The notes under the pieces were generated by a model, which made no database searches, was not told the DNA's origin, and worked only from the letters and a program-made list of their open reading frames with translations. From NCBI GenBank assembly GCA_904419495.1, contig CAJFRV010000007.1, forward strand, positions 21,763 through 85,762: DNA of 64,000 bases. Direction: 5' to 3'. A program made the translations under genes and the position numbers. This document shows, piece by piece, positions 1,982-59,927 of this stretch (positions within the stretch are counted from its first letter, which is position 1; each line of letters begins with the position of its first letter). This DNA is from an uncultured Clostridia bacterium. Lineage in GTDB: Bacteria > Bacillota > Clostridia > TANB77 > CAG-508.

Positions 1982-1995
1982 AGATCATGTTTATT

Positions 1996-2028
1996 CTGTT
2001 ATAGGAAAATTCAATATTTCCTATAACA
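1996..2028. repeat. Intergenic hairpin of the TATAGGAAA family (fabD-fabG spacer)
   Basis: ctgttataggaaaattcaatatttcctataacat is a near-perfect palindrome. Confidence 0.5.
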
Positions 2029-2064
2029 TCAACTTAATAAAACCAAGGAAAGGATGAAAGAAAG

Positions 2065-2805: not shown

Positions 2806-2820
2806 GAAGGCCTAACCTTG

Positions 2821-2876
2821 TTGTATACGAAAAAATCCATATAAGGTCAAGATAAAAGCCAATTTTTTCTATACAA
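2821..2876. repeat. Intergenic palindromic hairpin element (same family as 952..1013), fabG-fabF spacer, where acpP would normally sit
   Basis: Arms ttgtatacgaaaaaat / attttttctatacaa (14-15 bp) flank the loop ccatataaggtcaagataaaagcca. Confidence 0.55.
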
Positions 2877-2919
2877 TAAAAAATTGAAATAGAAATAGTA
2901 TGAAAGAGAAAGGAAGAGA

Positions 2920-4164
2920 ATGATGGAAAGAAGAGTTGTTATTACAGGATTGGGAGCATTAACACCAATAGGAAATACTGCAAAAGAATTTTGGGACGGA
3001 ATTAAGGCAGGAAAATGTGGAGTTGATGAAATAAAAAGTTTTGATGCTACAAATTTTAAAGTAAAGTTAGCAGCAGAATTAAAAAATTATAATCCAGAAG
3101 ATTATTTTGATAAAAGAGAGGCTAAAAGATTAGATAAATTTTCTCAATATGCTATGATAGCTGCTAGAGAAGCATGGAAAGATAGTGGATTAGATAAAGA
3201 AACTGAAAATATGGAAAGAGTAGGAATTGTTATTGGTTCTGGAATTGGAGGAATCAAAACAATTGAAGAAGAGAATGAAAAATGTATTACAAGAGGACCA
3301 GATAGAGTTTCTCCTATGTATATTCCTATGGGGATTTTAAATATGGCAACAGGAAATGTAGCAATTGATATAGGTGCAAAAGGTGAATCTATGGCTATGG
3401 TAACAGCATGTGCATCTGGAACACATTGTATTGGAGAAAGTTTCAGAATGGTAAAACATGGATATCAAGATGTTGTTTTAGCAGGAGGAACAGAAGCTGG
3501 AATTACACCTCTTGGTATAGCAGGATTTACCAATATTAAAGCTTTAACAAAATCAGAAGATAAAACAAGAGCAAGTATCCCGTTTGACAAAGAAAGAAGT
3601 GGATTTGTAATGGGAGAAGGTTCAGGTGTTATTGTATTAGAAGAATTAGAACATGCAAGAAAAAGAGGAGCAAAAATATATGCAGAAATAGTTGGGTATG
3701 GTGCTACATCTGATGCTTATCATATTACATCACCAGCTCCAGAAGGAGAAGGCGGTGCAAGAGCCATGAAACTTGCTATGGAAGATGGAAAAGTAAACCC
3801 AGAAGAAATTACATATATTAATGCACATGGTACATCAACACACTTAAATGATTCTTGTGAAACACAAGCAATTAAAACAGCTTTAGGTGAAGAAAACGCT
3901 AAGAAAGTAATGGTAAGTTCAACAAAAGGACATACAGGTCATTTATTAGGCGCAGCAGGTGGAGTAGAAGCAATTGTATGTGCAAAAGCTATTGAAGAAG
4001 GATTTGTTCCAGCTACAATCAATTACAAAGTTCCTGATGAAGAATGCGATTTAGATATTGTTCCAAATGAAGGAAGAAAAGTAGATATCAAATATGCAAT
4101 TTCTAACTCATTAGGATTTGGTGGACATAATAGTAGTATTTTATTGAAAAAATATGAAGGATAA
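2920..4164 (+). CDS. fabF: 3-oxoacyl-ACP synthase II
   Basis: RVVITGLGALTPIGN N-terminus, active-site Cys (ACASGTH), HGTST and GHLLGAAG motifs, 414 aa. Confidence 0.9.
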   Translation: MMERRVVITGLGALTPIGNTAKEFWDGIKAGKCGVDEIKSFDATNFKVKLAAELKNYNPEDYFDKREAKRLDKFSQYAMIAAREAWKDSGLDKETENMERVGIVIGSGIGGIKTIEEENEKCITRGPDRVSPMYIPMGILNMATGNVAIDIGAKGESMAMVTACASGTHCIGESFRMVKHGYQDVVLAGGTEAGITPLGIAGFTNIKALTKSEDKTRASIPFDKERSGFVMGEGSGVIVLEELEHARKRGAKIYAEIVGYGATSDAYHITSPAPEGEGGARAMKLAMEDGKVNPEEITYINAHGTSTHLNDSCETQAIKTALGEENAKKVMVSSTKGHTGHLLGAAGGVEAIVCAKAIEEGFVPATINYKVPDEECDLDIVPNEGRKVDIKYAISNSLGFGGHNSSILLKKYEG

Positions 4165-4253
4165 TAAAATAAACATTTTCAAATTAGAAAAAATAGTGTA
4201 AAATAAAGAAGAAGTCATATTTGCTTTTAAATAATCAAAATGGAGGGAGAATT

Positions 4254-4718
4254 ATGGATTATAAAGAAATTAAAAAGTTAATGGATGATATGGGAAATTC
4301 TAAATTAGAAGAATTAGAAATTGAATTTCCAGATGGTGTCAAAATTAGTATGAAAAAAAGCGAAAAAAGAGAAGTAATTGTAGAACCACATGTTATAGAA
4401 GCAAGCGCACCAATGTCTGTTCCTGTAGTAAAACCACAAGAAGAAAAGGGAATGGTTACAGTACCAGAAAAGAAAGAAGAAAATTATAAAGTAATCAAAT
4501 CACCAATGGTAGGAACTTTTTATGCTAGCTCATCTCCAGATAAAGATCCATATGTTAAAGTAGGAGATAGAATTTCAAAAGGGCAAGTTGTATGTATCGT
4601 AGAAGCTATGAAATTAATGAATGAAATCGAATCAGAATTTGATGGCGAAATTGTAGAAATCTGCGTAAAAAATGAAGATGTTGTAGAATATGGCACACCT
4701 TTATTTAAAATCAAATAA
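4254..4718 (+). CDS. accB: Biotin carboxyl carrier protein of acetyl-CoA carboxylase (start trimmed to the ATG behind the GGAGGGAGA RBS)
   Basis: C-terminal biotinyl domain with EAMKLMNEIE (the biotinylated Lys lies in AMKLM). Confidence 0.85.
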   Translation: MDYKEIKKLMDDMGNSKLEELEIEFPDGVKISMKKSEKREVIVEPHVIEASAPMSVPVVKPQEEKGMVTVPEKKEENYKVIKSPMVGTFYASSSPDKDPYVKVGDRISKGQVVCIVEAMKLMNEIESEFDGEIVEICVKNEDVVEYGTPLFKIK

Positions 4719-4753
4719 TGTCCATTGGGGACGTTTCCTTTTGGGACATTTTT
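4719..4753. repeat. Solo REP-like element (family 1, TTGGGGACG core)
   Basis: tgtccattggggacgtttccttttgggacattttt has the same sequence as the arms of the inverted pairs at 24599 and 44447. Confidence 0.6.
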
Positions 4754-4805
4754 AGTTCTTATATTAAAATAAATAATAAAAATAGGAAGGAAAAAGGTAG
4801 TAGAA

Positions 4806-5228
4806 ATGTTAAATAAAGAGCAAATTAAAGAGATTATTCCTCAAAGAGATCCATTTTTAATGATTGATGAAGTAGAGGCTTATATTCCGGGAGAAAGTGC
4901 AGTAGCATATAAGAATGTAAGTGAAGATGAATATTACTTTAAAGGACACTTTCCGGGAAATCCAATTATGCCGGGGGTTTTAATTGTAGAATCATTAGCA
5001 CAAACTGGTGCAGTTGCTATTCTTTCTATGGAAGAAAATAAAGGAAAAAATGCACTTTTCGGAGGTATTGATAAATTAAGATTTAAAAAACAAGTAGTTC
5101 CGGGCGATAGATTAAAATTAGAGGTAAAAATAATTAAAAGAAAAGGTCCTATTGGAATTGGAGAAGCTATTGCAACAGTGGATGGAAAAGTAGCAGCAAA
5201 AGGAGAATTAACTTTTGCAGTTGTTTAA
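4806..5228 (+). CDS. fabZ: 3-hydroxyacyl-ACP dehydratase
   Basis: [11 protein letters not shown] and [15 protein letters not shown] hotdog motifs, 140 aa. Confidence 0.9.
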
Positions 5229-5322
5229 AAATAAATATTTGAAAACTGAAATCCAGTTGTAGTAACGATACAATAGACAAAAAAAGATTATAGTATAATT
5301 AAATTTTATGCTATAATCTTTT

Positions 5323-5583
5323 TTATGCTTCATAATATTGATCAGTATTACTATATAAATCTTCTAAGGAAATTCCTAAAACTTTACAGAAAGCTAGAGC
5401 TTCAAAATCTTTTACTGTTTTTTTACCATATTCGATTTCATAAATGTCACAAATATACATGGTAACACCTAATAAATCTAATTTTTTACAAATTTCTGGT
5501 TGTGATATTTTTTTCAATTTTCTATATTTCCTTAAATTTTTACCAATAATATTTAAATTTCCATTTAAGGTTTTTACTTTCAT
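5323..5583 (-). CDS. XRE-family helix-turn-helix transcriptional regulator (Cro/cI-like)
   Basis: 86 aa; the N-terminal region LRKYRKLKKISQPEICKKLDL resembles XRE-type HTH regulators; divergent to the giant DGR target gene. Confidence 0.55.
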   Translation of the reverse strand: MKVKTLNGNLNIIGKNLRKYRKLKKISQPEICKKLDLLGVTMYICDIYEIEYGKKTVKDFEALAFCKVLGISLEDLYSNTDQYYEA

Positions 5584-5650
5584 GAAATACCTCCTATAAA
5601 TTTAAAACTAGTTAATTTAAATTATATTCTATAGTAAAATTCGCCATCGC

Positions 5651-5800
5651 TTTACAGGATGAAACTGTAAATATTACAAAAATATTTCTAAAAAGTTACA
5701 AATAAGATACATTTCATAAAAAAGATTGAAAGTAATCTACAGGATGTGGTATATTAAAAATAAGAAAACTACAGGATGTAGCATAAGTTTTGTAGTTTTT
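5651..5800. promoter_or_regulatory. Divergent promoter region with three related palindromic operator-like sites (TTTACAGgatgaaaCTGTAAA; CTACAGGATGTGG; CTACAGGATGTAG nested in AAACTACA..TGTAGTTT)
   Basis: The ACAGGATG core occurs three times (5653, 5737, 5771), each within an inverted repeat. It lies between the XRE gene and the giant ORF. Confidence 0.45.
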
Positions 5801-5886
5801 AGAAAATAGAATAAGTGAGAATTAGGAGCTTGTGAGATGTTTTTTAAAAGTAAATATATAAAATCAAAAGAGGAGGTATTTATAAA

Positions 5887-8800
5887 ATGAAATTTTCAAA
5901 GGGGAGAATGTTATTAGCAAAAGATGGAACACATGGTATCACTTTAATTGCACTGGTTATTACCATTATTGTTTTGTTAATTTTAGCAGGTATTAGTATA
6001 GCAACTTTATCAGGAGATAATGGTGTACTTACAAAAGCGGTAGAAGCTAAAAAACAGACTAAAATAGCAGAAGATACAGAAAATCTACAACTTTTATATG
6101 TACAAAAAGCAGGAGAAACAAAATACGGGGATCCATCAATAGATGAATACTTAGACTATGTAGAAGAAAAAGGATATCCGACTAAAGTAGACAACGGAGT
6201 CAGTTATGTAGAAGCAGATGGAAGTATCTATGAAGTTAGTATTGAAGATGGAGAATTGAAAGTAGATTATGTAGAAGAAGGTACAATTACTGATCCAAGA
6301 ATACAAAGAATAGAAATTGTAGAAAAAACTATGAATAGTATTAAGATATCTGTTATAGCATCAAGATTAGATGGCGGAACTTTCTATTATTATATAGGAA
6401 CAAGCGAAGATCAATTAGAAGAACAAGGAAGCGGTAAAGAAACAGAGTTCACATTTGAAAATTTAAGTCCGGGACAAACATATTATATTAAAGTAAAAGG
6501 TGTTACTACAGATGGAAGAGAAACAGAAAAAAATATAACAGCACAGATAGATTCTATACCAGATGCGGAAGGAAATATAACTTATGACATAAGATGGAAT
6601 AATGGAACAGCAACTGTTACTTTTAGAAGTACAAGTGGTTATACAATTGAAACAAGTAGAGATGGTTTAACATATACAAAAAGTTCTGTTGTAAGTGGTG
6701 TAGAAAATGGAGGAATTGTACGAGCAAGATTAACAAATGGAAACTTTGCAGGAAAAGAAATTACTGTAACAGTAATAGACTCTGAAAAACCAAAATTAAC
6801 ACTAAAAACAGGAAAAGTAACAAGTAAATCAATAGAATTAATTGCAACGGCAACAGATAATGAAAGTGGTGTTACGGGACAGTCATATAATTATTATATA
6901 GGAAAAGGTGGAGAAAGTAGCACGTTATCTGGAAATAATACAACAGGAAAATATACTTTTGAAAACTTAGATCAAAATACAACCTATGAAATTAAGGTAG
7001 AAATAGAAGATAGAGCAGGAAATAAAGCAACACAAACAATGGAAGCAAAAACAGAATTAATACCATCAGCTTCAAGTGCAATTCGTAGGAATGTTGTATG
7101 GAATGCAGATGGAACTGCACAAGTAACATTATCAACAGATACAAGTTACAACATTTTATATAATATAGATGGCGGTCAATGGGAATTATATTCAAATGCA
7201 TTATCTGTGACGAATGGACAAACAATTTATATGTGCTTAACAGACGGAAGAAATAGAGGAGAAGAATATGGATTACAGGTAATAGATAGAGATGGTCCAG
7301 AAATCACAGTGACAAGAGGAAAAATTACAACAAATTCTATAACGGTAAATGTAGAGGCAGAGGATAAAGGATCAGGATTACCACAAGGAAATACATACAA
7401 ATATTATATTAAATCAAGCAATGAATCAGATTATAGGTTAATAAAAGAAGGTGAAAGTAATACAACATTCACATTTACAGGATTGACTGCTCAAACAACA
7501 TATAATATTAGAGTAACAACAACAGACTTAGTGGGAAATGAAGGAAAAGGAGAAATAGATGCTACTACAAATGAATTTACTTATGTAACTGGTAATATTG
7601 AATTTAGTGAAATTCGTTGGGAAAACAAATTAGCAAATGTTACACTAACAAACAATACAGCAAATGCAATGGAATATAAAATCATTCCAAAGGGAACAGA
7701 AGTAGACTTAGGGGGAACATGGCAAACAGCATCTAATAAAACACAAACAGTAGGAAATTTAAAAGCTGGAGATATCATTCTTGCAAGATTGAATGATGGG
7801 GTTAATACAACAGGTTATGCAACATTAACTATCCAAGACACGATAAATCCAAGTATAGAAGTAAAAATTAGTAATGAACAATGGACCAATACATCTGTTA
7901 CCATAACTATTAATGCAACAGATAACGAAAGTGGATTACAAGAACAAGCTTATAGTTTTGACGGTGGTACAAATTGGCAAGCAGAAAATACAAAAACATA
8001 TGAACAAAATACTGCCGGAATTGTTATAAAAGTAAGAGACGAAGCTGGAAATGTGACAACATATAATACAATCAACATTACAAATATAGATAAAGACGGT
8101 CCAACAATGAATGTAGAAACAGATACAACATCAAATTCATTAACAGTAAATATTACATCTGTAACAGATGCTGGAATAGGACTAGAAGATACACCAACTT
8201 TTGTATATTATATAGCGACAAGTAGTGAAGCATTAGAAACCACAATAGGAGCTACAAGTACAGAAAAAACAAAACAATATACAGATTTAACGCAAAATAC
8301 AACCTATTATTTAAAAGTAGAAGTACAAGATAAATTAGGAAATGTAACAACTGTGTATAAAACAGTATCAACAGGATCATTAGATGCAAGTTCAGGAGAT
8401 GTTAATATAACAGATCCAGAATGGACAAATGGAAAAGCAAGTGTTAGAATTACGAATCAATCAGAATATGATTTACAATATCAAATCGTAGAAAATGGTG
8501 AGAGTTTTAATGAAAACGGAAACTGGACAAATGAAACGAATAAAGAAATGAATATTGGAGAATTAAAACATGGAGATGTTATATATGTAAGATTAACAGA
8601 TGGAAGCAATGTTAGTGGAACAATTATTAAAGAAATAAAAGATGTAGTAAATCCAACAATCACATCTGTAACAGGAAATCGTGAAGAATGGACCAATACA
8701 CCAATTACTTTAACGATTAATGCAACAGATAATGAAAGTGGATTACAAGAACAAGCATATAGTTTTGATGGTGGAAAAACTTGGCAAAAGGAAAATACAA

Positions 8801-11800
8801 AAATATATGAACAAAATACTGCTGGAATTGTTATACAAGTAAGAGATATAGCAGGTAATATAACAACATATGACACGATCGACATTACAAAGATTGATAA
8901 AACAGGACCAAGTATAACCATTGAAGAACAAGAAACAACAACCAATCAAAGTACAATCAATGTAAAGGCTACAGATAGTGGCGTAGGTATGGAGGAAACT
9001 CCAACCTACACCTATTACACAAAACAAGGAGAAGCAGAAAACTATACCAAAATAGAGGAAAATCAGAATACAACATATACATTTAAAAACTTAAAAGCAG
9101 GAACAACATATACCATAAAAGTCGAAGCAAAAGATACATTAGGAAATATAGGTGAGAAAACACTAGAAATTACAACAAGAAATTTATTATATTCAGTTGG
9201 AGATATTACGTTTACAGATATTATATGGAACAACGGAAAGGCAACAGTAACTGCAAATAATAAAATAGAAGAATATGATATGCAATATCAAATTGGGAAA
9301 GATGGAGCAAACATTAATTTAAATGGAGTATGGACAACAGTAAAAGAAAAATCAATACCAATTACCAATTTAGAAGATGATGATATTATTTATGCAAGAC
9401 TAACTGATGGTGTGAATGTAACTAGTGGGTATGCAACCTGTAATATTAGTAATATATCAAAAGAAACATACACAGAGGAAGAATTAGCAAAAGAAACAAC
9501 AAGAGCAGATTATGAAATATTAGGCATATCTGTAAATAATAATGAAATACGTGTACAAATTGATGGAAAAGAAGAGAATGGAGCATTATATAATTATTAT
9601 TACAAAACAGTTAATGATGATAAATATACATTAATTAGTACAAATACAAATTATAATGAGCCAGCAGTCATAACAGATATACAAGAAGGAACATTATATA
9701 AAATTAAAGCAACCATTATTGATACAGATGGAAATGTATCAAGAAGTGCGAATACAGCAACTACAATAGCACTGGGACAAGCAACTCAAAATACAACCTA
9801 TAATGACAATAGAACTTACATTGATAATAGTAAAGAAGTAGAAAATGCAGAAGGAAGTAAAGTAGTAGCTGGATATACAGTTAGTGTACCAGCAGGATTT
9901 AAAGTTTCAGAAACAGAAGGACAAAATAAACAAGAGGATGGGGTTGTATTAAAAGATAACAACGGAAACGAATATGTATGGATACCTGTTTATGATGCCA
10001 TATATGATGGTGTAACCAGTATGCCAACAAGTACAGGTACAGCAACTAGAACATATAAACCTATGGCAACTAAACAAACAGGAAAAGCGGGATATTACGA
10101 AAGTTTAATTTACACTTTTAATGGAACATTATCATATAGAAATTCAAGTAATACAGGAATCGGAAAAACAAGTTACAGAGAACCAAGTTTGATAACAAAT
10201 AATGCAAATGATGGATATACTTGGGATGTAACACAAACAGTAGGTGTAAACTATGATGCAGCAGAAGATTATTATAAAACAGTCTTAGGATTTGAAAGCG
10301 CAAAAGCTTTTGGAGAATATATGGCAAGTAGCTATAATGATATGATTATGTCAGTTGATTCTTATGGAGGTTTTTATATAGGAAGATATGAAACAACAGC
10401 AGAAGAAACAGGAGACGGTGTTGTTGTTGGATCACAAGCCAATAAAACGGTATTAGCTAACAAAAATTGGTATCAAATGTTGTTATATCAAGATAGTGAA
10501 AAATATACGAAAAATCCATACAACACAATTGCAAGTGCAAGAACAAGTATGGTTTGGGGAAACCAATGGGATGCTATGTTAAATTATGTTTTAAAAGGAA
10601 TGGATAGTACAAAAGTAACTGGAAAAACCGGACAACAGAAAAATACACCAAGCAATTCTGGACAAGATGCATCAGATGTCATGAATAATATATATGATTT
10701 AGGATCAAATCTATATGAATGGACACAAGAAGCAAATGCAACTAACTATAGAATTTATAGAGGAGGAAGCTATGATACAGCATCTTCAGGAAGAGCATAT
10801 ACAAGAAATAATGTTGTACCAATAGACCAAGGACCAGCATTTGGAACAAGACTAGGTTTATATGTTAAGAGTACAAATGATGTAACAGGACCGGTTGTAA
10901 CAATTAACCATACAACAGCAACCTCAAATACGATTACAGTAGATGTAACAGCAACTGACAAGGAAACAGGTGTAAGTAGTTATCGATATTCTATTAGTGA
11001 AAATGGTATGAATTGGACACAAGTTGCAGAAACAACAACAAATACCTATACTTATACAGGCTTAAAACAAAATACAAATTATTATATAAGAATTATAGCC
11101 GTTGACGGACAAGAAAATGTTGGAGAAGCAGTAGAAACACAAGTAAAAACACAAACATTAGGAAACATTTCAGCAACAGCCATTACCTTATCACAAAAAT
11201 ATGGACCAGATGGACAAGGAATTGTACAATTGAACTTAGAAGATACCTACAAGAATTCAGGATATCATATAGAAACACAAGTTGTAAAACCGGGTGGAAA
11301 CTTCACAGAAGATCAAGGATGGACATCAGGAGATACGGTATATAATTTATCAAATGGAGATAAAATTTATGCAACTGTATATGATGGAAAGAATCGTTCA
11401 GGGGATTATTTCGAATTAGTAGTAGACGGTTTAGAAGAATATGCTTATATAGATGAAGAAGGAAATACCTATACAGAAGAGGAAGCACAAAAAGAAGAAA
11501 ATAAAAATCAAACTACTTACGATACAACTATGAATTATACAGATGAAGAAGGAAATACTGCAACCATTCCAGCAGGATTTAAAGTAGGAATATCTGATTC
11601 TGTAAAAAGTATTAACAATGGACTAGTTATTCAAGATAACAAAGGAAACGAATATGTTTGGGTACCAGTAGAAGAAGCTATTGAAACAGATACAACAACA
11701 GATTCAGCCCAAAAAGCAATGGCGAGATATCAAGCAGGATATAGTAGTGGTTCAGCAAAGGAATTTTTTGAAGGAATTTTATATAACTTTACAGGAACAG

Positions 11801-14337
11801 CATCAACCAAGAGAAGTAATAAAGCAGTTTTAGGAACAAATGTATATAGAGAACCAACTTTAATTTCAGGTGGTGCAGACTATACATGGAATATTGCAAA
11901 TAATAGTTCTAAGGGACAAGGATATGACTTATTAGAACAATATTATAAAAATATGGGATTTGGAACAACAAGTGGTGTTAGTGCATTTAATAGTTATACA
12001 GAATTTGGACAATATATGAATGAAGAATATAGTAATATGTTAAAAAGTGTAGACAAACATGGAGGGTTCTATGTTGGTAGATATGAAGTGAGTACAGAAG
12101 GAAATTTAGTTACAAAGGATGCAGTTATACAATCACAAATTGCTAAAAATCCAATAGCTAATCAAAACTGGTATAAAGAATATTATTATCAAGACAGTAA
12201 TCTAAATCCAAAAAATCCATATTATCAATCATCAAGTGTAACAACTTCTATGATATGGGGAAGTCAATGGGATGCTATGTTAAATTGGATGTTAGATGAT
12301 GATAAGACAAGAGAGTTTGTAACATCTATTACAGGAAATCATACAGAAACAGTTGCACAGACAGGTTCATATTCAACAGACTTATCAAAAAATATCTTCG
12401 ACTTGAGTTCAAATGTAGGTGAATGGACACAAGAAGGACAAGGAACAACATATAGAATGGCAAGAGGAGGTTATTGTGTATTAACAACGGATAAATACAT
12501 TTTCAATGCAAGTAGTAGATATAATACATGGCAACCACCAACAATGACATCAGTATATTCAAATCCAACTTCTATAGGAACAGATACAAGTAAAAACTAT
12601 TTAGGATCAAGAACAGCAATGTATATCAAAGATACGACAGATACAACAGCACCAGAAATTTCAATAAATAGTAAAACAGCAGGTACAAACAATATAGAAG
12701 TAAATGTAACAGCAGTAGATAAAGAATCGGGAATTAATAAATACATATATGCAATTAGCTTAAAGAATTTTGAGGATACAGGATTTAACGAAGAAACAGA
12801 TATTTTACAAAAAGTTGAAACACATGGAAATACATATATATTTAATGAACTAACACAAAATCAAAGTTATTATATAAGAATACAAGCAGTTAATGGTGTA
12901 GGCGGAATAGCAACTGCCTATACCGGGCTTATAAAAACAGAAGTCTTGAATGTACAAGAAGGAGCTATTATTCAAGAAAAAGTATATGGAAAAAATGGGC
13001 AAGGAACGGCATATTATGAGATTAGTGGTGAAACGAACTTTGAAAATGAAGGATATTATATAGAATATCAAATAGATAAAGGTGGAACAACAGGATATCA
13101 GCCAAGTGGTAGTTGGACAAAAGGAAATACAGTTAATGGTTTATCAGTTGGAGATGTTGTATATACTAGAATTTATGATGGTGTTAACGATTCTGGATAT
13201 TATATGACTACTAACATTACAGAATTGGAAACTTTTTCAGAGGTTTATAAAGAAACAAAAATATATGAAGATATAGAAACAAATCCAGTAGAAGGTGGAG
13301 AGTCAGAGACAGAAGTTGTCGGAAGAGCATATATTCCAGCAGGTTTTAAAGTATCAACATCAAGTCTAACAAATAAAATTGCAAACGGATTGGTTATAGA
13401 AGATGAGGCAGGAAATCAATATGTTTGGATACCAGTAGAAAATGCTATATATGATGGAAAAACGACAATTTCAGCTAATTATAAACCAATGGCAAGATAT
13501 CAGTCAGGATATAATGAAAGTACGGCAGAGCAGTATTTTGAAGCAATTTTATACACATTTAGTGGTACAAGTTCAAGCAATTATTCATTAACTGGTTATG
13601 GATTAGGAAAAAGTTCATTTAGAGAGCCAAGTTTAGTAACAAATAGTACAGCAAATTATTCATGGGTATTTACTGCTGGAAATAATTATGATGCTACAAA
13701 TTACAATCAGTTAAGTCCATTAGGAATTAATAGTGCGACAGCAATGGGAACATATTTAAATGATAAATATACAGAAATGGTAGAAAGCATTGCAAAATAT
13801 GGAGGATTTTATGTAGGAAGATATGAAACAAGTTCTTGGGAAACAGATAACTGGGAAGCAGGAGGAACTAACAAAGATAATACAGGAGAAATTATAAAAT
13901 CTGTGCCAAATGCAACAACAATGGCATCAACAAACTGGTATAAGATGTATTTAAAACAAGATAGTAATTATACTTCAAATCCATATCATACAAGCTCAAG
14001 TGTAACAAGTTCTATGATTTGGGGAGCACAATGGGATACCATGTTAAATTATATATTAACAGGTTCAGATAAAGAGAAGGTAACAGCAGTAACAGGAAAT
14101 CACTCGGGAACTAGGGCTAAGACAGGACAATATGGAAGTGACATAATGAATAATATTTTTGATTTAAGCTCTAATGTAAGAGAGTGGACAAGCGAGGCTT
14201 CTGGAGCAACCAACCGTGTCTTTCGTGGAGGCTATTACGATACGGATGATCTCTATGCTTCAAGCATTCGCTATTGCTACAATCCTACGAATAGCTTCTA
14301 CCATATCGGTTCGCGTCTCTCACTTTATTTAAAGTAG
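5887..14337 (+). CDS. Giant (2816 aa) surface protein and DGR target. It has a prepilin-like N-terminal anchor, >10 Ig/Fn3-like modules and three FGE-sulfatase/C-type-lectin-fold domains; the last one carries the VR.
   Basis: The 8451-nt ORF is uninterrupted. The N-terminus KDGTHG|ITLIALVITIIVLLILAGISIATL resembles a class III (prepilin) leader but has Ala at +5. Modules recur with the motifs YY[IY]..., TTY.I.V and ATDNESG. The three CLec-type domains carry GGFY[IV]GRYE ... WG.QWD.MLN ... EWT ... R[IVM].RGG[SY]Y motifs. The C-terminal 134 nt pair with the TR. Confidence 0.85.
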   Translation: MKFSKGRMLLAKDGTHGITLIALVITIIVLLILAGISIATLSGDNGVLTKAVEAKKQTKIAEDTENLQLLYVQKAGETKYGDPSIDEYLDYVEEKGYPTKVDNGVSYVEADGSIYEVSIEDGELKVDYVEEGTITDPRIQRIEIVEKTMNSIKISVIASRLDGGTFYYYIGTSEDQLEEQGSGKETEFTFENLSPGQTYYIKVKGVTTDGRETEKNITAQIDSIPDAEGNITYDIRWNNGTATVTFRSTSGYTIETSRDGLTYTKSSVVSGVENGGIVRARLTNGNFAGKEITVTVIDSEKPKLTLKTGKVTSKSIELIATATDNESGVTGQSYNYYIGKGGESSTLSGNNTTGKYTFENLDQNTTYEIKVEIEDRAGNKATQTMEAKTELIPSASSAIRRNVVWNADGTAQVTLSTDTSYNILYNIDGGQWELYSNALSVTNGQTIYMCLTDGRNRGEEYGLQVIDRDGPEITVTRGKITTNSITVNVEAEDKGSGLPQGNTYKYYIKSSNESDYRLIKEGESNTTFTFTGLTAQTTYNIRVTTTDLVGNEGKGEIDATTNEFTYVTGNIEFSEIRWENKLANVTLTNNTANAMEYKIIPKGTEVDLGGTWQTASNKTQTVGNLKAGDIILARLNDGVNTTGYATLTIQDTINPSIEVKISNEQWTNTSVTITINATDNESGLQEQAYSFDGGTNWQAENTKTYEQNTAGIVIKVRDEAGNVTTYNTINITNIDKDGPTMNVETDTTSNSLTVNITSVTDAGIGLEDTPTFVYYIATSSEALETTIGATSTEKTKQYTDLTQNTTYYLKVEVQDKLGNVTTVYKTVSTGSLDASSGDVNITDPEWTNGKASVRITNQSEYDLQYQIVENGESFNENGNWTNETNKEMNIGELKHGDVIYVRLTDGSNVSGTIIKEIKDVVNPTITSVTGNREEWTNTPITLTINATDNESGLQEQAYSFDGGKTWQKENTKIYEQNTAGIVIQVRDIAGNITTYDTIDITKIDKTGPSITIEEQETTTNQSTINVKATDSGVGMEETPTYTYYTKQGEAENYTKIEENQNTTYTFKNLKAGTTYTIKVEAKDTLGNIGEKTLEITTRNLLYSVGDITFTDIIWNNGKATVTANNKIEEYDMQYQIGKDGANINLNGVWTTVKEKSIPITNLEDDDIIYARLTDGVNVTSGYATCNISNISKETYTEEELAKETTRADYEILGISVNNNEIRVQIDGKEENGALYNYYYKTVNDDKYTLISTNTNYNEPAVITDIQEGTLYKIKATIIDTDGNVSRSANTATTIALGQATQNTTYNDNRTYIDNSKEVENAEGSKVVAGYTVSVPAGFKVSETEGQNKQEDGVVLKDNNGNEYVWIPVYDAIYDGVTSMPTSTGTATRTYKPMATKQTGKAGYYESLIYTFNGTLSYRNSSNTGIGKTSYREPSLITNNANDGYTWDVTQTVGVNYDAAEDYYKTVLGFESAKAFGEYMASSYNDMIMSVDSYGGFYIGRYETTAEETGDGVVVGSQANKTVLANKNWYQMLLYQDSEKYTKNPYNTIASARTSMVWGNQWDAMLNYVLKGMDSTKVTGKTGQQKNTPSNSGQDASDVMNNIYDLGSNLYEWTQEANATNYRIYRGGSYDTASSGRAYTRNNVVPIDQGPAFGTRLGLYVKSTNDVTGPVVTINHTTATSNTITVDVTATDKETGVSSYRYSISENGMNWTQVAETTTNTYTYTGLKQNTNYYIRIIAVDGQENVGEAVETQVKTQTLGNISATAITLSQKYGPDGQGIVQLNLEDTYKNSGYHIETQVVKPGGNFTEDQGWTSGDTVYNLSNGDKIYATVYDGKNRSGDYFELVVDGLEEYAYIDEEGNTYTEEEAQKEENKNQTTYDTTMNYTDEEGNTATIPAGFKVGISDSVKSINNGLVIQDNKGNEYVWVPVEEAIETDTTTDSAQKAMARYQAGYSSGSAKEFFEGILYNFTGTASTKRSNKAVLGTNVYREPTLISGGADYTWNIANNSSKGQGYDLLEQYYKNMGFGTTSGVSAFNSYTEFGQYMNEEYSNMLKSVDKHGGFYVGRYEVSTEGNLVTKDAVIQSQIAKNPIANQNWYKEYYYQDSNLNPKNPYYQSSSVTTSMIWGSQWDAMLNWMLDDDKTREFVTSITGNHTETVAQTGSYSTDLSKNIFDLSSNVGEWTQEGQGTTYRMARGGYCVLTTDKYIFNASSRYNTWQPPTMTSVYSNPTSIGTDTSKNYLGSRTAMYIKDTTDTTAPEISINSKTAGTNNIEVNVTAVDKESGINKYIYAISLKNFEDTGFNEETDILQKVETHGNTYIFNELTQNQSYYIRIQAVNGVGGIATAYTGLIKTEVLNVQEGAIIQEKVYGKNGQGTAYYEISGETNFENEGYYIEYQIDKGGTTGYQPSGSWTKGNTVNGLSVGDVVYTRIYDGVNDSGYYMTTNITELETFSEVYKETKIYEDIETNPVEGGESETEVVGRAYIPAGFKVSTSSLTNKIANGLVIEDEAGNQYVWIPVENAIYDGKTTISANYKPMARYQSGYNESTAEQYFEAILYTFSGTSSSNYSLTGYGLGKSSFREPSLVTNSTANYSWVFTAGNNYDATNYNQLSPLGINSATAMGTYLNDKYTEMVESIAKYGGFYVGRYETSSWETDNWEAGGTNKDNTGEIIKSVPNATTMASTNWYKMYLKQDSNYTSNPYHTSSSVTSSMIWGAQWDTMLNYILTGSDKEKVTAVTGNHSGTRAKTGQYGSDIMNNIFDLSSNVREWTSEASGATNRVFRGGYYDTDDLYASSIRYCYNPTNSFYHIGSRLSLYLK
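14191..14324 (+). repeat. DGR variable repeat (VR) at the 3' end of the target gene
   Basis: It aligns base-for-base with 16324..16454. There are 16 differences, and 15 of them are at positions where the TR has A. It is GC-rich (cgt/ggc/tcg codons) compared with the host background. Confidence 0.85.
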
Positions 14338-14344
14338 CACTGGA

Positions 14345-14358
14345 CACGAAAGCCGTGA
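14345..14358 (+). promoter_or_regulatory. Short GC-rich hairpin immediately 3' of the VR (cacg-aaagc-cgtg), a candidate DGR target-recognition hairpin
   Basis: GC-rich inverted repeat 8 nt after the stop codon in an AT-rich context. The analogy is to the hairpin downstream of the Bordetella phage mtd VR. Confidence 0.25.
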
Positions 14359-14511
14359 ACTTGAACATATAAATGAATTAGTGGACATAACAAATTTTGA
14401 TAAGTAGAAATTAAAATGCTTCCTTAGAGTTGCTATATAATCCTAAGGAGGCATGTCCTGATAAAAATAGAACAATTGCATTAGAAAATAGATAAATAAC
14501 CCTTTCCTAAA

Positions 14512-14850
14512 TTTTCGAAGCAATTGTTCATATATAGGAAATTCATTTCCCATATATGAAAAGTCGCTTGCGACTAACAGTTGTACACAATTTTACGTAA
14601 GTAAAATTGATACAGGAACAAATACGCGACATGTAAGTAATTAAAAAACAAAAAAATTTTAATCATGTCGCTATTGTTCTTGTATAGGAAAAATCGAGTT
14701 TTTCCTATACAAGAACGTTGCTTCGCTCTAACAATTGCACACAAATTTTACTAACGTAAAATTTGGCGCCGAACAATGACGCAGGCTTTGAAATGTTATA
14801 AATAGAAAATCTTTAAAAAAGCCCGCTATTGTTCTTAAATAGGAATAGGG
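14512..14850. repeat. Tandem ~150-nt repeat (2.2 copies) in the VR-avd spacer; each unit carries a TATAGGAAA-family hairpin and a second hairpin caa(a)tttta-N6-taaaa(t)ttg
   Basis: Units start at ~14512, ~14666 and ~14820. The first ~95 nt of units 1 and 2 are ~70% identical. The perfect palindrome cttgtataggaaaaatcgagtttttcctatacaag lies at 14679..14713. Confidence 0.6.
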
Positions 14851-14900
14851 ACAGAGACGAAAATAACAATTGAAATAAAAAAGAAAAACAAAGGAAAATT

Positions 14901-15269
14901 ATGAAACAAGATAATGAATTAAAGCTCATACCAGCTTATGAGCAGTATATGGAATATATGATACAATTACTTATAAAATTGCCCAGAACAGAGAAATTTA
15001 GTATAGGTACAGAATTTAAACAAGTGATGTATAGTACATTAGAAGATATTATGTTTATAACAAAGTTAGATATGAATAAAAGATTAAGTTATTTAAATCG
15101 AATAGATGCAAAATTAAATGCACAAAGAATCATGCTAAGAGTTATGAAAAAATTTGCATGGATAGACATAAAGAAATTTGATATTGCAATGGGAAAAATA
15201 TATGAAATTGGTAAAATATTAGGAGGGCTTATTAAATATTATGCCAAAAACAATCAGAAATCAATTTGA
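14901..15269 (+). CDS. avd: DGR accessory variability determinant (Avd-like four-helix-bundle protein)
   Basis: 122 aa, basic, predicted helical, immediately upstream of the RT and overlapping it by 29 nt. This is the typical DGR position for avd. The assignment rests on context and size rather than strong sequence similarity. Confidence 0.55.
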   Translation: MKQDNELKLIPAYEQYMEYMIQLLIKLPRTEKFSIGTEFKQVMYSTLEDIMFITKLDMNKRLSYLNRIDAKLNAQRIMLRVMKKFAWIDIKKFDIAMGKIYEIGKILGGLIKYYAKNNQKSI

Positions 15270-16287
15270 TAAATATTTGACTTATGAAAAATTGTTAGAA
15301 GCACACAACAAATCTAAAAAAGGAAAATGTCGAAAAACAGAATTAATTCGATTTAATTTAAAACAAGAAGAATATATTATGTATTTATATCATCAGTTGA
15401 AGAATGGAACTTATAAACATGGTGGCTATACAGAATTTTACGTAACAGAACCTAAGTTAAGAAAAATAGAAAAGTCCAGATATATTGATAGAATCGTTCA
15501 TAGATGGCTTGTAGATAATTTTTTATTAAAAGGGTTTGCTAGTCAATTCATCAATACTTCTTATGCTTGCATAAAAAACAAAGGTATGCATAGAGCAGCA
15601 TTTAAAGTACAAGAATATATGAGAAAGGCAAAGGTAAATTGGGGAGAAAATTATTATGTTTTAAAAACAGATATTGCAAAATATTTTAATAGCATTGATA
15701 AAGAAATTTTAATAAAAATCTTAAAGAGAAAGATAAAAGATGAAAAATTGCTATGGCTAATAAATGAAATATTGTATGCCCAGAAAAGGAAAAAAGGAAT
15801 TGAAATAGGAAATTATACAAGTCAAATATTTGCCAATATTTATTTAAATGAAGTCGATCAATATATTAAACATGAATTAAAAGTAAAATATTATGTTCGA
15901 TATTTAGATGACAGTATATTACTTTTAGAAACAAAAAAAGAGGCTAAAGAAGTTTTATTTAAAATACAGGTATTTTTAAAAGAAAAATTGGAATTGGAAC
16001 TGAATAAAAAAACACAAGTTTTTAAAGGAAAACAAGGAATTAATTTTTGTGGATATAAAATTAATGAATATAGACTAAAATTAAGGGATAAGGGAAAAAG
16101 AAAACTAAAAAATAAAATTAAGAAAATGAAAAGTTATGTAAAAAAAGGAAAAATAAGTAGTCATGAGGCCAAAAGATATTTAGCAGGTCATATAGGTTAT
16201 GTGAGATGGGCAAACGTATATAATTTAATGAATAAATTATTTTATATAGAAGATAATCAGTTTACAAATAAGAAAAGCATACATTAA
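15241..16287 (+). CDS. DGR-type reverse transcriptase
   Basis: RT motifs are present: KTDIAKYFNSID (motif 2), IGNYTSQIFANIYL (SQ motif 4, diagnostic of DGR RTs versus QG in group II introns), YVRYLDDSILL (catalytic YxDD). 348 aa, no maturase or endonuclease domain. Confidence 0.9.
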   Translation: MPKTIRNQFDKYLTYEKLLEAHNKSKKGKCRKTELIRFNLKQEEYIMYLYHQLKNGTYKHGGYTEFYVTEPKLRKIEKSRYIDRIVHRWLVDNFLLKGFASQFINTSYACIKNKGMHRAAFKVQEYMRKAKVNWGENYYVLKTDIAKYFNSIDKEILIKILKRKIKDEKLLWLINEILYAQKRKKGIEIGNYTSQIFANIYLNEVDQYIKHELKVKYYVRYLDDSILLLETKKEAKEVLFKIQVFLKEKLELELNKKTQVFKGKQGINFCGYKINEYRLKLRDKGKRKLKNKIKKMKSYVKKGKISSHEAKRYLAGHIGYVRWANVYNLMNKLFYIEDNQFTNKKSIH

Positions 16288-16323
16288 CAAAATTCAAGAT
16301 TTAGATATAGGGATAAATCGAAG

Positions 16324-16454
16324 AGGCTAATGGAGCTACCAACCGTGTCAATCGTGGAGGCAATTACAATACGGATGATCTCAATGCTTCAAGCAATCGC
16401 AATAGCAACAATCCTACGAATAGCAACAACAATATCGGTTCGCGTCTCTCACTC
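16324..16454 (+). repeat. DGR template repeat (TR), downstream of the RT
   Basis: Non-coding copy of the VR with AAT/AAC at every diversified codon (it would read GATNRVNRGGNYNTDDLNASSNRNSNNPTNSNNNIGSRLSL). It shares the GC-rich 3' block atcggttcgcgtctctcact with the VR, a candidate IMH*. Confidence 0.85.
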
Positions 16455-16686
16455 TAATACTATTTCAGATTATATATTTTACGGAATATATACAGTAAAG
16501 TATTAGTAATAAAGAGATTTATTCCTTCCTGATAATTTGTGATATCATTTGTTTTTATATATAAAATTTAGAAAACGTAAATGGTGTTATAAGTAAGATG
16601 GTAAAAAATGATAAGAACAATATATGTTAGTAAATATATCGAATTGAAAATATATCATTGTTCGTAAAAAAATAAAGGATTGTAAT

Positions 16687-24598: not shown

Positions 24599-24704
24599 TG
24601 TCCAATTGGGGACGTTTCTGTTTGGGACATTTTTACGTAAACTAGAAAATGACTCAAATAGTAAACATAAAAATGTCCCAAACAGAAACGTCCCCAATTG
24701 GACA
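24599..24704. repeat. REPIN-like element, family 1: two 36-bp REP arms in inverted orientation around a 35-bp spacer
   Basis: tgtccaattggggacgtttctgtttgggacattttt ... aaaatgtcccaaacagaaacgtccccaattggaca is a perfect reverse-complement pair. Each arm holds two direct TTGGGGAC / TTTGGGAC half-sites. Confidence 0.65.
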
Positions 24705-24735
24705 CTTGATTGAACAAGGAATAGGTGAGAATAAA

Positions 24736-25377
24736 ATGAGTAAAAAGAAAATCATAATTATTTCAATATGTGTAATAGTTGTATTAATTATATTGGGAGT
24801 AGCTATATATTTTATAAGCAAAAATATAGAAGCAAGTGCAAATGAAAATAAATTATCAAAAATGTATAATAAAATGATGGAAAATAAGACTTATACAATT
24901 TCATTCAAATTAGATGATAATAATCAAAATACTATTTCAAGGAATGGAAATATGGCCAATATAGATACTTATAGTAATGGAAAGCATACCACTACAATTA
25001 TACGTGATGGAAATACACACTTGTTACTATATGATACCAAAAAATTTTACACGTATCAGAATAATGATATAGAGCTAGAAGAATTACCTAATAGCCTAAA
25101 TAAAATTTTACAAAGCCAAGAACCAACCAAAGGCGAGGAAGAAGTAAACGGAACAATGTACAAGTATGAAGAGTATAAAGGTGTAAATAGTTTTTTAATG
25201 AATGCCGATGATGAAACTTCAGAAGGAAATATTTCTACAAAATTTTACTTTAAAGGTGATAATTTAAAATATATAAAAACGATTATGGGAGATACATCTG
25301 AATTGTTAGAAATAAATTTATCTTATGGAACAGATAATAAGGCATTTGAAATACCTACTGATTTCCAAGAAGGATAA
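24736..25377 (+). CDS. Hypothetical exported/membrane-anchored protein (start trimmed so that it lies outside the REPIN)
   Basis: MSKKKIIIISICVIVVLIILGVAIYF signal-anchor; RBS AGGTGAG. Confidence 0.45.
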   Translation: MSKKKIIIISICVIVVLIILGVAIYFISKNIEASANENKLSKMYNKMMENKTYTISFKLDDNNQNTISRNGNMANIDTYSNGKHTTTIIRDGNTHLLLYDTKKFYTYQNNDIELEELPNSLNKILQSQEPTKGEEEVNGTMYKYEEYKGVNSFLMNADDETSEGNISTKFYFKGDNLKYIKTIMGDTSELLEINLSYGTDNKAFEIPTDFQEG

Positions 25378-42896: not shown

Positions 42897-44406
42897 CTAA
42901 AAACTTTTCATTTTCATATAAACACGTTTTCTATCAAATACTATCATAAAACTTAAATAAGATAGAACAAACAAAGAAATTTGCATAATCGTATTTAATG
43001 AAAAATTTGAAAAAGTGATAGGTAATAGTTTAATTACCAAATAAGATGCCAGACAAGCAAAAATAGGTCTTATAATAAATTTTTTAAAATTCACTGAATA
43101 ATTAATTTTTTTCTTTAGTTGAATACTACTAATTGTAAAATTTAAAAGTTCACTTACAAAAATACTCAAAATATATCCATACATTCCCATCAGAGGGACA
43201 ACAAAAAAGATAATAGATATGGTAACCAATAAATCAATAATATTACAGACCATAACACTAACTTGTTCATTAATACCTTTTAGCATGTTATCTATGATAT
43301 TATCTATATACATGAAAAAAATAAGAGGAGAAAGTATTCTGATCCATTTTCCAGCTTCTATAGATTGATAGACCATTAAACTAATTTCATTAGAGAATAT
43401 AACAAAAATACCTGTAACACCAATAGAAAAAATAAATGTAACTTTAAAAATGGTATCACAAACGGTTTTTAATCTGTTATAATTTTCACCAGCCAGTAAT
43501 CTGGAGAATTCTGGAACTAATAAGCTACTAAAAGAACCAATCAAGACATTAGCAAACATGATAACTGGCATAACCATTCCGACTAATTAAACCATAGTTA
43601 GAGACAGCTAAGGAATAAGAAATGCCTGATAATTCTAAGCGAATTGGAATTAAGAATTGTTTTAAAGAGGAAAGTCCTGAACGTATACAAGAAGTGATAC
43701 TAATCGGAAAAGCAATGGAAAAGATTTTTTTCTTCATTTGTATAGGTAAACTTCTCTTGGATATGTATTTTTTTCTATCAAATAGATAAAAAATGATGTT
43801 TAAACTAAAAGAAAATATTTCAGATATTACATCAGCTAAAATAAGAGAAATACAAATAGATTCTACATCTTTTGAAGGATTTAGATAAAGTAAAAATACA
43901 GTAGCAATTATTTTTACACTTGTTTCTAGAATTTGCGAAATAGCACTTTTATATGGTTTTTCAACAGATGAAAAATATCCTCCAATTACAGAAGAAACAG
44001 AAATAAGAGGTAATCCAAGAGAAATTAGATAAATGGGGATTTCAGATACAGCATGTTTCAACCATGCAGATGAGATTACTGGTGCAAATAAAATAATAAA
44101 AAGGGAACTGGTTATACCTAATAATAAAGCAAAAAGTATAGACGTTTTAACAGCTTTTAAACCATTAATATAATTTCCTTTTGCAAACTCTTCAGATACA
44201 ATGCAAGTACAGGCAATCCCAATACCAGATGTAGCAACTGTTATAGCAAAACTATAAACAGACATTAATAAACTGAAAACTCCAATGGCTTCTGATCCAA
44301 CTTTATTAGCTACATAGATATTAAAAATTAGTCCAATTCCTCTCATGGCTAAGGAAGTACTTGTTAAAATAATTCCATTAATAAAAAATAATTTTGTTTT
44401 TCTCAA
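42897..44406 (-). CDS. MOP-superfamily flippase (SpoVB/MurJ-like polysaccharide biosynthesis protein), split by a frameshift near 43549..43600
   Basis: The N-terminal ORF (43549..44406) resembles SpoVB (LTSTSLAMRGIGLIFNIYVANKVGSEAIG). Together the two ORFs give ~12-14 TM helices and ~510 aa. Confidence 0.65.
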
Positions 44407-44446
44407 AATATCACCTTATAAATGATATTAGGAAAAATCAATTTTA

Positions 44447-44732
44447 TGTCCATTTGGGGACGTTTCTTTTTGGACATTTTCAAGACATTGTAATAAAAAA
44501 TAAAAGTATATAAAAATTTATGAAATGACGAATGTGAATGAAATCATGTTAGAAAAAATTAAAGTATCTAATAGGAGAATCTCAAATTTTGCTTTGAGAG
44601 GTGCCTATTAGATACTTTTAGTTTTTCTCATGATGTAATGTTAGCCGAGGAATAAAATAAATTTTTATATACTTTTCTTTTTTATATAACTATTTTAAAA
44701 AATGTCCAAAAAGAAACGTCCCCAAATGGACA
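44447..44732. repeat. REPIN/MITE-like element, family 1: 34-bp inverted REP arms around a 217-bp interior that contains a long hairpin (44564..44615)
   Basis: tgtccatttggggacgtttctttttggacatttt ... aaaatgtccaaaaagaaacgtccccaaatggaca. Interior hairpin: gtatctaatagg-N28-cctattagatac. Confidence 0.6.
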
Positions 44733-44734
44733 TA

Positions 44735-45475
44735 TTATGTTTTTAAGGACATTAAAGTAACATTTACTAATCCTTCAGTAACAGAAGATAATATTTTTAT
44801 ATCATTTCCAGTATCATTTTTAAATTTAAAATCATAACTACCATAAGCAACTGCTGCATCCTTTCCTTCTGGTACATAAGGTACATGATTGCTATGAGGA
44901 TGTCTTTCTACAACAGTTAAACCTGATGTTGCTAATACAGCATTATATAATGTACTACTAACTTGACAATTACCACCACCATATCCTTTTTTCTTATTTC
45001 CATTATGATCATATATATCCGCTTCTAGATAACCTTTACTACTTGTAGCAGGTCCAACTGTATTACAAAAAGAAAACGTGTCACCACTTTTTACAATAGT
45101 ATCATTCAAGGTAGAAGTAGTAATTTCCATATTTTTTGTTCTATTAGAATCATTAGAATAAATTTTAGTAGAGAATGCTGATAATTGTTCTTCAGTTGTT
45201 TGAGAAGTAGTATTTGTAGTGTTTTCTGTAGTAGAAGAATTTTCAGATGTTGTATTATCTGAAGTGTTATTTGTAGTATTCTCATTGTGAGAAGTATTTT
45301 CTTCAGGAGCTGTATTTTCATTATGTGCTATAGTATTTTCACTTGAAGTTCTATTAGCTTCATAATTTGCATTTTTACTATTATCAGAGGAAGTATTTCT
45401 TACATAAAAAAATATACCAATTCCAATTAACGCAAGTAGTCCAATAATGATAAAAATTCCTAATTTTTTATTCAT
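44735..45475 (-). CDS. VanW-domain protein (membrane-anchored, N/T/S-rich linker)
   Basis: C-terminal VanW-like motifs GYGGGNCQVSSTLYNAV and VAYGSYDFKFKN. Start set at MNKKLG, which sits behind a GGTGA RBS. Confidence 0.7.
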   Translation of the reverse strand: MNKKLGIFIIIGLLALIGIGIFFYVRNTSSDNSKNANYEANRTSSENTIAHNENTAPEENTSHNENTTNNTSDNTTSENSSTTENTTNTTSQTTEEQLSAFSTKIYSNDSNRTKNMEITTSTLNDTIVKSGDTFSFCNTVGPATSSKGYLEADIYDHNGNKKKGYGGGNCQVSSTLYNAVLATSGLTVVERHPHSNHVPYVPEGKDAAVAYGSYDFKFKNDTGNDIKILSSVTEGLVNVTLMSLKT

Positions 45476-59656: not shown

Positions 59657-59719
59657 AAAAAATCCTTTCTTTCATAAGTTTTGTTATTTAAATATATGTA
59701 TGAAAAAATCGATTATGCT

Positions 59720-59839
59720 AAAATTGTGATGATTTTGGGGACGGAGCAAAAAATCATCATTTATATAAAGACTTTTTATATGATTTTTCATAGAATAAAT
59801 GATGATTTTTTGCTCCGTCCCCAAAATCATCACAATTTT
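59720..59839. repeat. REPIN-like element, family 2: perfect 44-bp inverted repeats around a 32-bp spacer; each arm is itself a hairpin with GGGGACGGAGCA in the loop
   Basis: aaaattgtgatgattttggggacggagcaaaaaatcatcattta and its exact reverse complement at 59796..59839; it shares the TTGGGGACG core with family 1. Confidence 0.7.
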
Positions 59840-59927
59840 AATAAATGACTTTAAAACACTTGATAAAAAAAGATTTTAGTGATATAGTAACAAAGTGAAA
59901 AAATAAACTTAGGAGGACCGATTAACA

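Follow-up and report, generated by a model that had tools for sequence, protein, structure and literature searches.

Two described kinds of repeat-transposase system resemble the locus discussed here. REP/REPIN sequences and their REP-associated tyrosine transposases (RAYTs) are known from Pseudomonas and E. coli (Bertels & Rainey 2011, PMC3116915). In the TIRtrons, or TIRYTs, a RAYT-like gene is flanked by long inverted repeats that contain GGGGWSAS, and the flanking repeats form moderately abundant dispersed families of singles, dimers, and groups; Clostridia are not mentioned in that description (Di Nocera et al. 2013, PMC3733652). Most TIRYTs belong to TnpA-Y1 subclass 2.1, whose members carry a C-terminal extension of the HTH type and for which no REP-like secondary structure was reported (Quentin et al. 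2018, PMC6006769). Subclass 2.1 is RAYT Group 1, which has been reported in Clostridia (Bertels et al. 2017, PMC5581495). We conclude that a 106-bp inverted doublet in an uncultured Clostridia bacterium, termed doublet B here, is probably a non-autonomous REPIN-like element, its repeat unit being the cognate site of a RAYT-class Y1 (HUH) transposase. Set against the published descriptions, the closest described type appears to be the TIRYT/TIRtron and not the canonical GTAG REPs.

A unit of about 35 nt, TGTCCA(W)TTGGGGACGTTTC..TTT(G)GGACATTTT, occurs five times in the window, the whole stretch of 64,000 nucleotides that we analyzed, as one singleton and two head-to-head doublets (Table 1). An earlier note made from the sequence alone had listed one singleton and two inverted pairs, all intergenic and adjacent to accB, ALDH, and spoVB-like/vanW genes; the sequence is as described there, all copies in the window are intergenic, and the gene neighbors agree. 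The 13-mer TTGGGGACGTTTC is present five times where 0.37 occurrences are expected, a count that none of 100 shuffles reaches, and all seven copies of the heptamer GGGGACG in the window (about 0.95 expected) fall inside repeats, five in family 1 and two in a sibling family, family 2. Exact matches to the full 35-nt pattern are the two units of doublet B. A search of Rfam returned no family matching the repeats.

Table 1. Coordinates of the repeat units and doublets within the window
Feature	Position	Strand	Remarks
Doublet B, left unit	24599..24633	+	TGTCCAATTGGGGACGTTTCTGTTTGGGACATTTT; predicted stem TGTCCAA (24599-24605) / TTGGGACA (24622-24629)
Doublet B, left unit, loop motif GGGGACG	24608-24614	+	in the predicted loop
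Doublet B, spacer	24634..24669		outer parts still complementary; spurious ATG at 24649
Doublet B, right unit	24670..24704	-	exact inverted copy; GGGGACG at 24689-24695, minus strand
Doublet B, entire (106 bp)	24599..24704		head-to-head, REPIN-like
Singleton A	4719..4753	+	directly after TAA stop of biotin-lipoyl (accB-type) gene, co-directional
Doublet C (286 bp)	44447..44732		units 44447-44480 (+) and 44699-44732 (-)
Family-2 sibling doublet	59719..59840		46-nt perfect arms, 30-nt spacer

The arms of doublet B extend beyond the units to 46 nt each (24599-24644 and 24659-24704); they are 93% complementary and stand 14 nt apart. The element begins 4 nt past the stop codon of an aldehyde dehydrogenase (Aldedh) gene and ends 32 nt ahead of the start of a 213-aa ORF. 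In several assemblies gene callers have taken the ATG within the doublet as the start of this ORF, giving 242 aa (24649-25377); the true start is likely to be 24736, which has AGGTGAG ahead of it, so that the repeat adds a false 5′ extension. Singleton A, whose downstream neighbor is a FabA-family (fabZ-like) gene, resembles a doublet B arm over 42 nt, and this likeness makes it plausible that the singleton is a decayed doublet, as the earlier note supposed. In doublet C, arms of 36 nt (44445-44480 and 44699-44734) are 100% complementary and enclose an interior of approximately 217-218 nt (44481-44698) that is itself partly palindromic. Both neighbors of this doublet are minus-strand genes: it has the stop codon of a VanW gene on one side and the start of a Polysacc_synt/MatE gene on the other. 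The latter, a flippase gene, is split into overlapping ORFs of 285 and 226 aa in different frames (42897-44406, minus strand); the split is identical in conspecific contigs and reflects either a real frameshift or recoding. The family-2 doublet lies between a divergent DUF1980_C gene and secA, and each of its arms is a hairpin in which TGATGATTTT pairs with AAAATCATCA and GGGGACGGAGC occupies the loop.

The window also holds a diversity-generating retroelement (14194-16663). A pair of 134-nt repeats with 87% identity (14194-14327 and 16323-16456), the first of which lies at the 3′ end of a 2816-aa ORF (5887-14337), looks like its variable and template repeats; the interval between them carries genes for bAvd (14901-15269) and for a reverse transcriptase (15241-16287), and a match to the RT-14 RNA lies at 16452-16663. 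A non-coding segment between the 2816-aa gene and bAvd (14668-14841), with short hairpins of its own, is 84-92% identical to unrelated loci (L072, L071, L078, L061, and L016). It is either another dispersed repeat or a conserved sequence associated with the retroelement.

The family-1 unit is predicted to fold around GGGGACG by pairing TGTCCAA with TTGGGACA. This modifies a detail of the earlier note, which had placed two direct half-sites in the loop: the first, TTGGGGAC, does lie there, but the second, TTTGGGACA, is the 3′ stem arm that pairs with TGTCCAA. When the region from 14 nt before to 28 nt after the heptamer was searched, a perfect stem of at least 5 bp was found around 85% of 215 GGGGACG sites in the loci listed, compared with 21% when the 3′ side was shuffled. 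At least eight stem variants surround the same loop, among them the sibling stems AGGGATTTT / AAAATCCCT, TTGCCA / TGGCAA, and GTGGAACG / CGTTCCAC; a flipped stem (GGGACA / TGTCCC) and a compensated one (TGTCG / CGACA) also occur. Since the stems covary around a conserved loop, a single-strand structure is indicated. A shorter alternative hairpin within the unit, GTCC/GGAC, was considered and set aside: the TGTCG variant disrupts it and the sibling families cannot form it at all, whereas the enclosing stem is kept. The predicted folding of a lone family-1 unit is weak (-2.5 to -3.7 kcal/mol, z = -0.65 to -2.4), that of a family-2 unit good (-6.8 kcal/mol, z = -4). Whole doublets give long hairpins that are nearly perfect (-45 and -53 kcal/mol, z = -16 and -18), a single strand of doublet B giving a 106-nt hairpin of -45 kcal/mol as DNA with z = -16.

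The earlier note proposed counting the unit genome-wide, and in related genomes it proves to be widely dispersed. When a single genome of each species was scanned for the exact pattern, at least 111 stretches were located, all but one in genomes of uncultured gut Clostridia, 'Clostridium sp.', Eubacteriales, or Bacillota; a looser search, carried out afterwards on the loci so obtained, yielded approximately 200 units. Among the loci listed, pairs within 800 bp of one another are head-to-head, with TGTCC at the outer ends, in 40 cases and tail-to-tail in four. The 40 head-to-head doublets fall into several size classes between 47 and 667 bp; these loci also hold 29 same-orientation neighbors and 108 unpaired units away from locus edges. 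As a lower bound on copy number, one genome carries at least 10 stretches, and the window has five family-1 and two family-2 units in its 64 kb. A longer arm (...GGGACATTTTTATGTAAAG) is common to many doublets, doublet B included, and the 286-bp element of doublet C has full-length relatives with a homologous interior in other species (L057, 89%; L049; L078). Directly at the element boundary, none of the 40 doublets has flanks that match over at least 3 nt, as a target-site duplication would produce, and one of 40 matches if the boundary is moved 1-2 nt outward. At four loci (L025, L049, L083, and L088) the complementarity of the doublet runs 8-10 nt past the TGTCC ends into the flanks, a hint that longer subfamilies exist or that the insertion went into a palindrome already present. 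The idea of a strict target motif for insertion was rejected: the outer flank of the units is enriched for TAA/AATAA but has no fixed word.

The 64-kb window contains no Y1 gene. In one of the at least 111 repeat-bearing loci listed (L091), two inverted units 1 kb apart enclose an ORF of 262 aa (6878-7666) that encodes a Y1_Tnp protein (PF01797, IS200-like; E = 1.5e-17). Its HUH (NHVHLVI) and Y---NP (RYIHQNP) motifs are invariant in 39 sequences. The best NCBIfam match is the RAYT model (RayT), at 68-78 bits just under the cut-off of 80, while the IS200 model NF033573 gives 17-20 bits against a cut-off of 55. An AlphaFold model of the protein (mean pLDDT 86) is closest in a fold search to 4ER8 (E = 6.9e-7, TM 0.71), which is E. 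coli TnpA-REP bound to a REP hairpin; the IS608, ISDra2, and IS200 transposases follow. A PDB sequence search with the single protein gave no match, and one with a Y1 profile gave a marginal match to 4ER8 (E = 0.024). The C-terminal part is a helical extension of approximately 120 aa, the model being all-helical over residues 152-258, and the only Pfam HTH match in the protein is to HTH_26 (E = 0.028), below the cut-off of that family.

The genomic setting of this gene is constant. Among 3610 homologues of the L091 protein at E <= 1e-10, six that are 54-84% identical to it share one gene order, which holds over proteins of 54-85% identity: mreB, a radical-SAM gene, a gene of approximately 100 aa, the Y1 gene, radA, and disA. 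A seventh (66% identical), on a 2-kb contig, has the ~100-aa gene ahead and a radA-like start behind. In all eight related lineages examined (L091, L119, L123, L126, L128, L132, L134, and L235), TGTCC..GGGGACG..GGACA units stand on both sides of the Y1 gene in inverted orientation. The inverted flanks measure about 35-55 nt; the upstream unit starts right after the TAA of the small gene, and the downstream unit abuts the radA ribosome-binding site. Many Y1 genes lie on contigs of about 1 kb that end inside units, as would be expected if the flanks are multi-copy. Judged from these sequences, the related lineages have a single copy of the Y1 gene, which is passed on vertically and keeps the same chromosomal locus. 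A single copy, a fixed locus, and flanks made of its own dispersed repeats identify the gene as a RAYT and not as an insertion sequence. The earlier note had read the doublets as RAYT substrates and proposed searching for a Y1 gene flanked by the same repeats, and the related genomes bear it out, the reading being further favored by the RAYT-like score and fold. The eight Y1 homologues that were looked up come from other lineages, and none shares a sample with the contigs conspecific with the window.

Several features of these loci deserve separate mention. Between the upstream unit and the Y1 gene, the close lineages all have a conserved hairpin with a T run after it (AAAAAGTATAGCACAT...ATGTGTTATACTTTTTTT), at 2888-2945 in L119 and at the same position in L091, L123, L126, L128, L134, and L235; this hairpin may serve the Y1 gene as a terminator or in its regulation. 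The radA gene beside the Y1 gene is called as two ORFs (~111-143 aa, then 257-310 aa) in L118-L121, L126, L128-L130, and L132, and of a single 454-aa ORF in L122-L125. Three loci with 'GAAAAATAA|TGTCC' flanks (L004, L023, and L078) were considered as RAYT loci that lack the gene and were rejected, as they have no homologue of the small gene or of radA.

The association between gene and hairpin extends to distant relatives. When metagenome contigs were scanned with the protein alignment, 80 homologues with identities of 34-54% were obtained; they come from sediments, bioreactors, and guts. Of the 61 with usable flanks, 43 have GGGAC[AG][GT] upstream on the gene strand together with a copy downstream on the opposite strand, compared with two of 61 in the reverse-orientation control; the upstream copy is typically some 60 nt ahead of the start codon. 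In an ungapped alignment of 42 upstream sites of these distant homologues, an 8-bp stem around the loop GGGACGGTTCT has 80.1% of its cells paired, against 51.4% after shuffling (0/500) and 36-50% in slid controls. Its covariation score is 0.73 versus 0.23, and in seven of the eight pairs both partners vary. The unit-flanked Y1 gene at a conserved locus, the flanks of the distant homologues, and the covariation of the stem together support the RAYT/REPIN reading of the repeats.

Comparison with the described systems places the family more precisely. As in canonical REPIN-RAYT systems, we find hairpin repeats that are short and extragenic, are for the most part paired as inverted doublets with one long hairpin as their fold, and are located downstream of genes, with singlets beside doublets; as there too, a single-copy, vertically inherited Y1/HUH transposase is flanked by its own repeats, here in related genomes. 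The predicted fold of the clostridial Y1 protein is closest to that of E. coli TnpA-REP (4ER8). Unlike canonical REPs, however, the family has no GT[AG]G tag at the 5′ foot of the hairpin and carries GGGGACG in the loop instead; doublet spacing is variable (47-667 bp) and not narrow and family specific; the protein falls slightly short of the NCBIfam RayT cut-off and bears the ~120-aa helical C-terminal extension; and the host belongs to a low-GC lineage of gut Clostridia, not to Pseudomonas or E. coli. The REP label used in the earlier note thus stands as far as the inverted doublets and the flanked RAYT-like gene are concerned, but there is no GTAG tag and the system is nearer to the TIRYT/TIRtron type. 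Membership among the CGTC-tagged REPs (Di Nocera 2013, PMC3733652) was considered and rejected, because the reverse-strand CGTCCCC sits in the loop and not at the foot of the palindrome.

With the TIRYTs the family shares a RAYT-like gene that has long inverted repeats and not GTAG REPs, the class-2 Y---NP and HUH motifs, and dispersed repeats present as singles, dimers, and groups. Motifs of the TIRYT type, GGGG(A/T)(C/G)A(C/G), occur beside the Y1 gene in L132 and L126 (GGGGACAC and GGGGACAT) and in distant loci (GGGGACAG), whereas the commonest core of the units, GGGGACG(T/G), departs from GGGGWSAS at positions 7-8. Unlike subclass 2.1 as published (PMC6006769), the motif is here enclosed by a covarying stem. 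The IS200/IS605 elements, together with their palindrome-associated derivatives, are similar in their Y1 HUH core, in single-strand hairpin recognition (putative here), and in leaving no target-site duplication. They differ in that our gene is single-copy at a fixed locus, that its flanking hairpins are inverted and on opposite strands, and that the IS200 model scores the clostridial protein below its cut-off.

Turnover of the repeats is visible between species. A related genome (L063) that is syntenic with positions 1-5991 of the window, at approximately 80-84% identity, lacks singleton A at the orthologous site; past the stop codon of its acyltransferase (fabD-type) gene it carries a doublet of 163 bp, where the window has none; intergenic divergence blurs the boundaries of the empty sites in this comparison. 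All eight conspecific contigs carry doublet B, in one orientation and with a few SNPs, some in the core; being fixed there, it gives no sign of recent movement at 24599-24704. The site orthologous to doublet C in related species holds the same doublet, one whose interior has diverged, a remnant (TGTCCAATTGGGGATGTTCCCCAATACC) that has collapsed so that the outer ~14 nt of both arms are joined at the GGGGA|C core, or a composite array with family-3 units, and the left boundary is always ...TTA|TGTCC. Doublet C looks like an old insertion, vertically inherited and rearranged in place. In the composite array (L238, ~880-1115), a single family-1 unit precedes two family-3 units in inverted arrangement (GGGAAATTGGGGACGGACTC...), so that different hairpin families accumulate at one spot. 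A separate difference among the conspecific contigs is an IS3-type insertion (HTH_28 and rve ORFs) between the 226-aa and L31 genes in one of them (L149, 3765-5125), absent from the window.

Unexpectedly, the orientation of spacers varies within the species. Two conspecific contigs (L147 and L242) carry the interior of doublet C as its reverse complement; L147 matches the window at 99.2-99.6% identity in the flanks and, after reversal, at 96% over the interior. Of nine conspecific contigs, four to five have the 30-nt spacer of the family-2 doublet in the opposite orientation. Since a spacer of 30 nt cannot invert by duplex looping, a route through a hairpin, a cruciform, or single-stranded DNA is more likely. 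Small hairpin-loop inversions between inverted repeats are familiar from the non-coding DNA of plastids, and the present case resembles them in having a short spacer between perfect inverted repeats and both orientations among close relatives. Unlike the plastid inverted repeats, those described here are members of a transposase-associated family.

These inversions raise the question of whether the doublets are invertons, segments flipped by a site-specific recombinase at inverted repeats so as to switch the expression of neighboring genes. The reversed interior of doublet C, an element directly upstream of the polysaccharide flippase gene, and the frequent reversal of the family-2 spacer are what such a system would display. 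We nevertheless consider it quite unlikely: doublet B keeps one orientation in all eight contigs, spacers of 14-36 nt are too short for duplex looping or for a promoter, no invertase gene was seen adjoining the elements, and promoter-like matches in a scan of 44300-44850, around doublet C, are not enriched (7 versus 4.8 +/- 2.6 expected). The inversions themselves could be simple hairpin-loop flips between perfect inverted repeats. The doublets might alternatively be MITEs, internally deleted derivatives of a DDE-type insertion sequence that move by cut and paste with the 35-nt units as terminal inverted repeats. The TIR-like doublet ends (TGT...ACA), the variable interiors, and the recurrence in several species of the 286-bp version with its conserved interior would all fit such an origin. 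Yet there is no target-site duplication at any length tested, no DDE gene lies between units in the at least 111 loci listed, where the sole gene found to be bounded by units is the Y1 gene, many units are solitary or tandem, and the covariation of the stems around a conserved loop points to single-strand structure. We regard this origin as very improbable.

Two further explanations would assign the units to the host from the outset. In the loci listed, 27% of units start 0-5 nt past the stop of a co-directional ORF, compared with 0.8% of random positions, and terminator-like matches (TGTCCAATTGGGGACG then TTTCTGTTTG) coincide with units where 0.0-0.1 would be expected; a terminator consensus scan matches the 5′ half of the unit, with 5-6 pairs, 3 GC, and then TTTCTGTTT. 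Host terminators or stabilizers of mRNA 3′ ends, similar to one another through function and not through mobility, would show such a distribution. This explanation is nonetheless an unlikely one, in that near-identical sequences of 35-46 nt occur at unrelated loci and in different species, their presence varies between related genomes, the stems are weak with loops of 11-16 nt, and identical units flank the Y1 gene in inverted orientation. The units may secondarily have been co-opted for a role at transcript ends. We give scarcely any credence to an operator through which a transcription factor would control a regulon. The two direct GGGAC-containing half-sites in the unit, and the helical, possibly HTH-like C-terminal part of the Y1 proteins, could be taken to suggest one, but the sites lie downstream of genes and not at promoters, the neighboring genes are functionally unrelated, the spacing between copies is highly variable, and sequence changes keep base-pairing and not a fixed duplex sequence.

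If, as we think, doublet B is a REPIN-like element served by a RAYT-class enzyme, its history can be sketched by analogy with E. coli TnpA-REP and IS608 TnpA. On single-stranded DNA, the Y1 enzyme would recognize the hairpin together with its loop motif and would then cut and rejoin at that place. Over long times, copies would be seeded mostly just downstream of stop codons, would be inherited vertically, and would rearrange in place by deletion of the center, inversion of the spacer, and growth of arrays. A transcribed doublet should form a very stable intercistronic stem-loop and may secondarily serve as a transcript-end or terminator-like element. Catalysis, the strand acted upon, the cleavage site, an effect on expression, and the presence of the Y1 gene in this particular genome are what we infer in drawing this picture. 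We have also entertained the idea that one Y1 enzyme reads the GGGGACG loop and not the stem, serves several hairpin families of unrelated stems within a genome, and drives the spacer flips, cutting two inverted hairpins on opposite strands and exchanging their ends. We find it doubtful; if it were true, REPIN-like doublets would constitute a new single-strand-based DNA inversion switch, and the doublet upstream of the polysaccharide flippase gene (doublet C) would be an example.

For those who work with these genomes the repeats have practical consequences, as they break metagenome assemblies, create false start codons, and mark small inversions between strains. REPIN-RAYT systems are the best-known case of vertically persisting mobile DNA and have been studied almost solely in Proteobacteria. 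What we describe is a known kind of element in a lineage for which none had been described, and an equivalent system can now be placed in abundant, uncultured gut Clostridia. It is also linked to a branch of the RAYTs (TIRYT, Group 1, subclass 2.1) that had no previously recognized structured repeat, and the conserved loop within covarying stems provides a concrete candidate for the DNA substrate of the enzyme.
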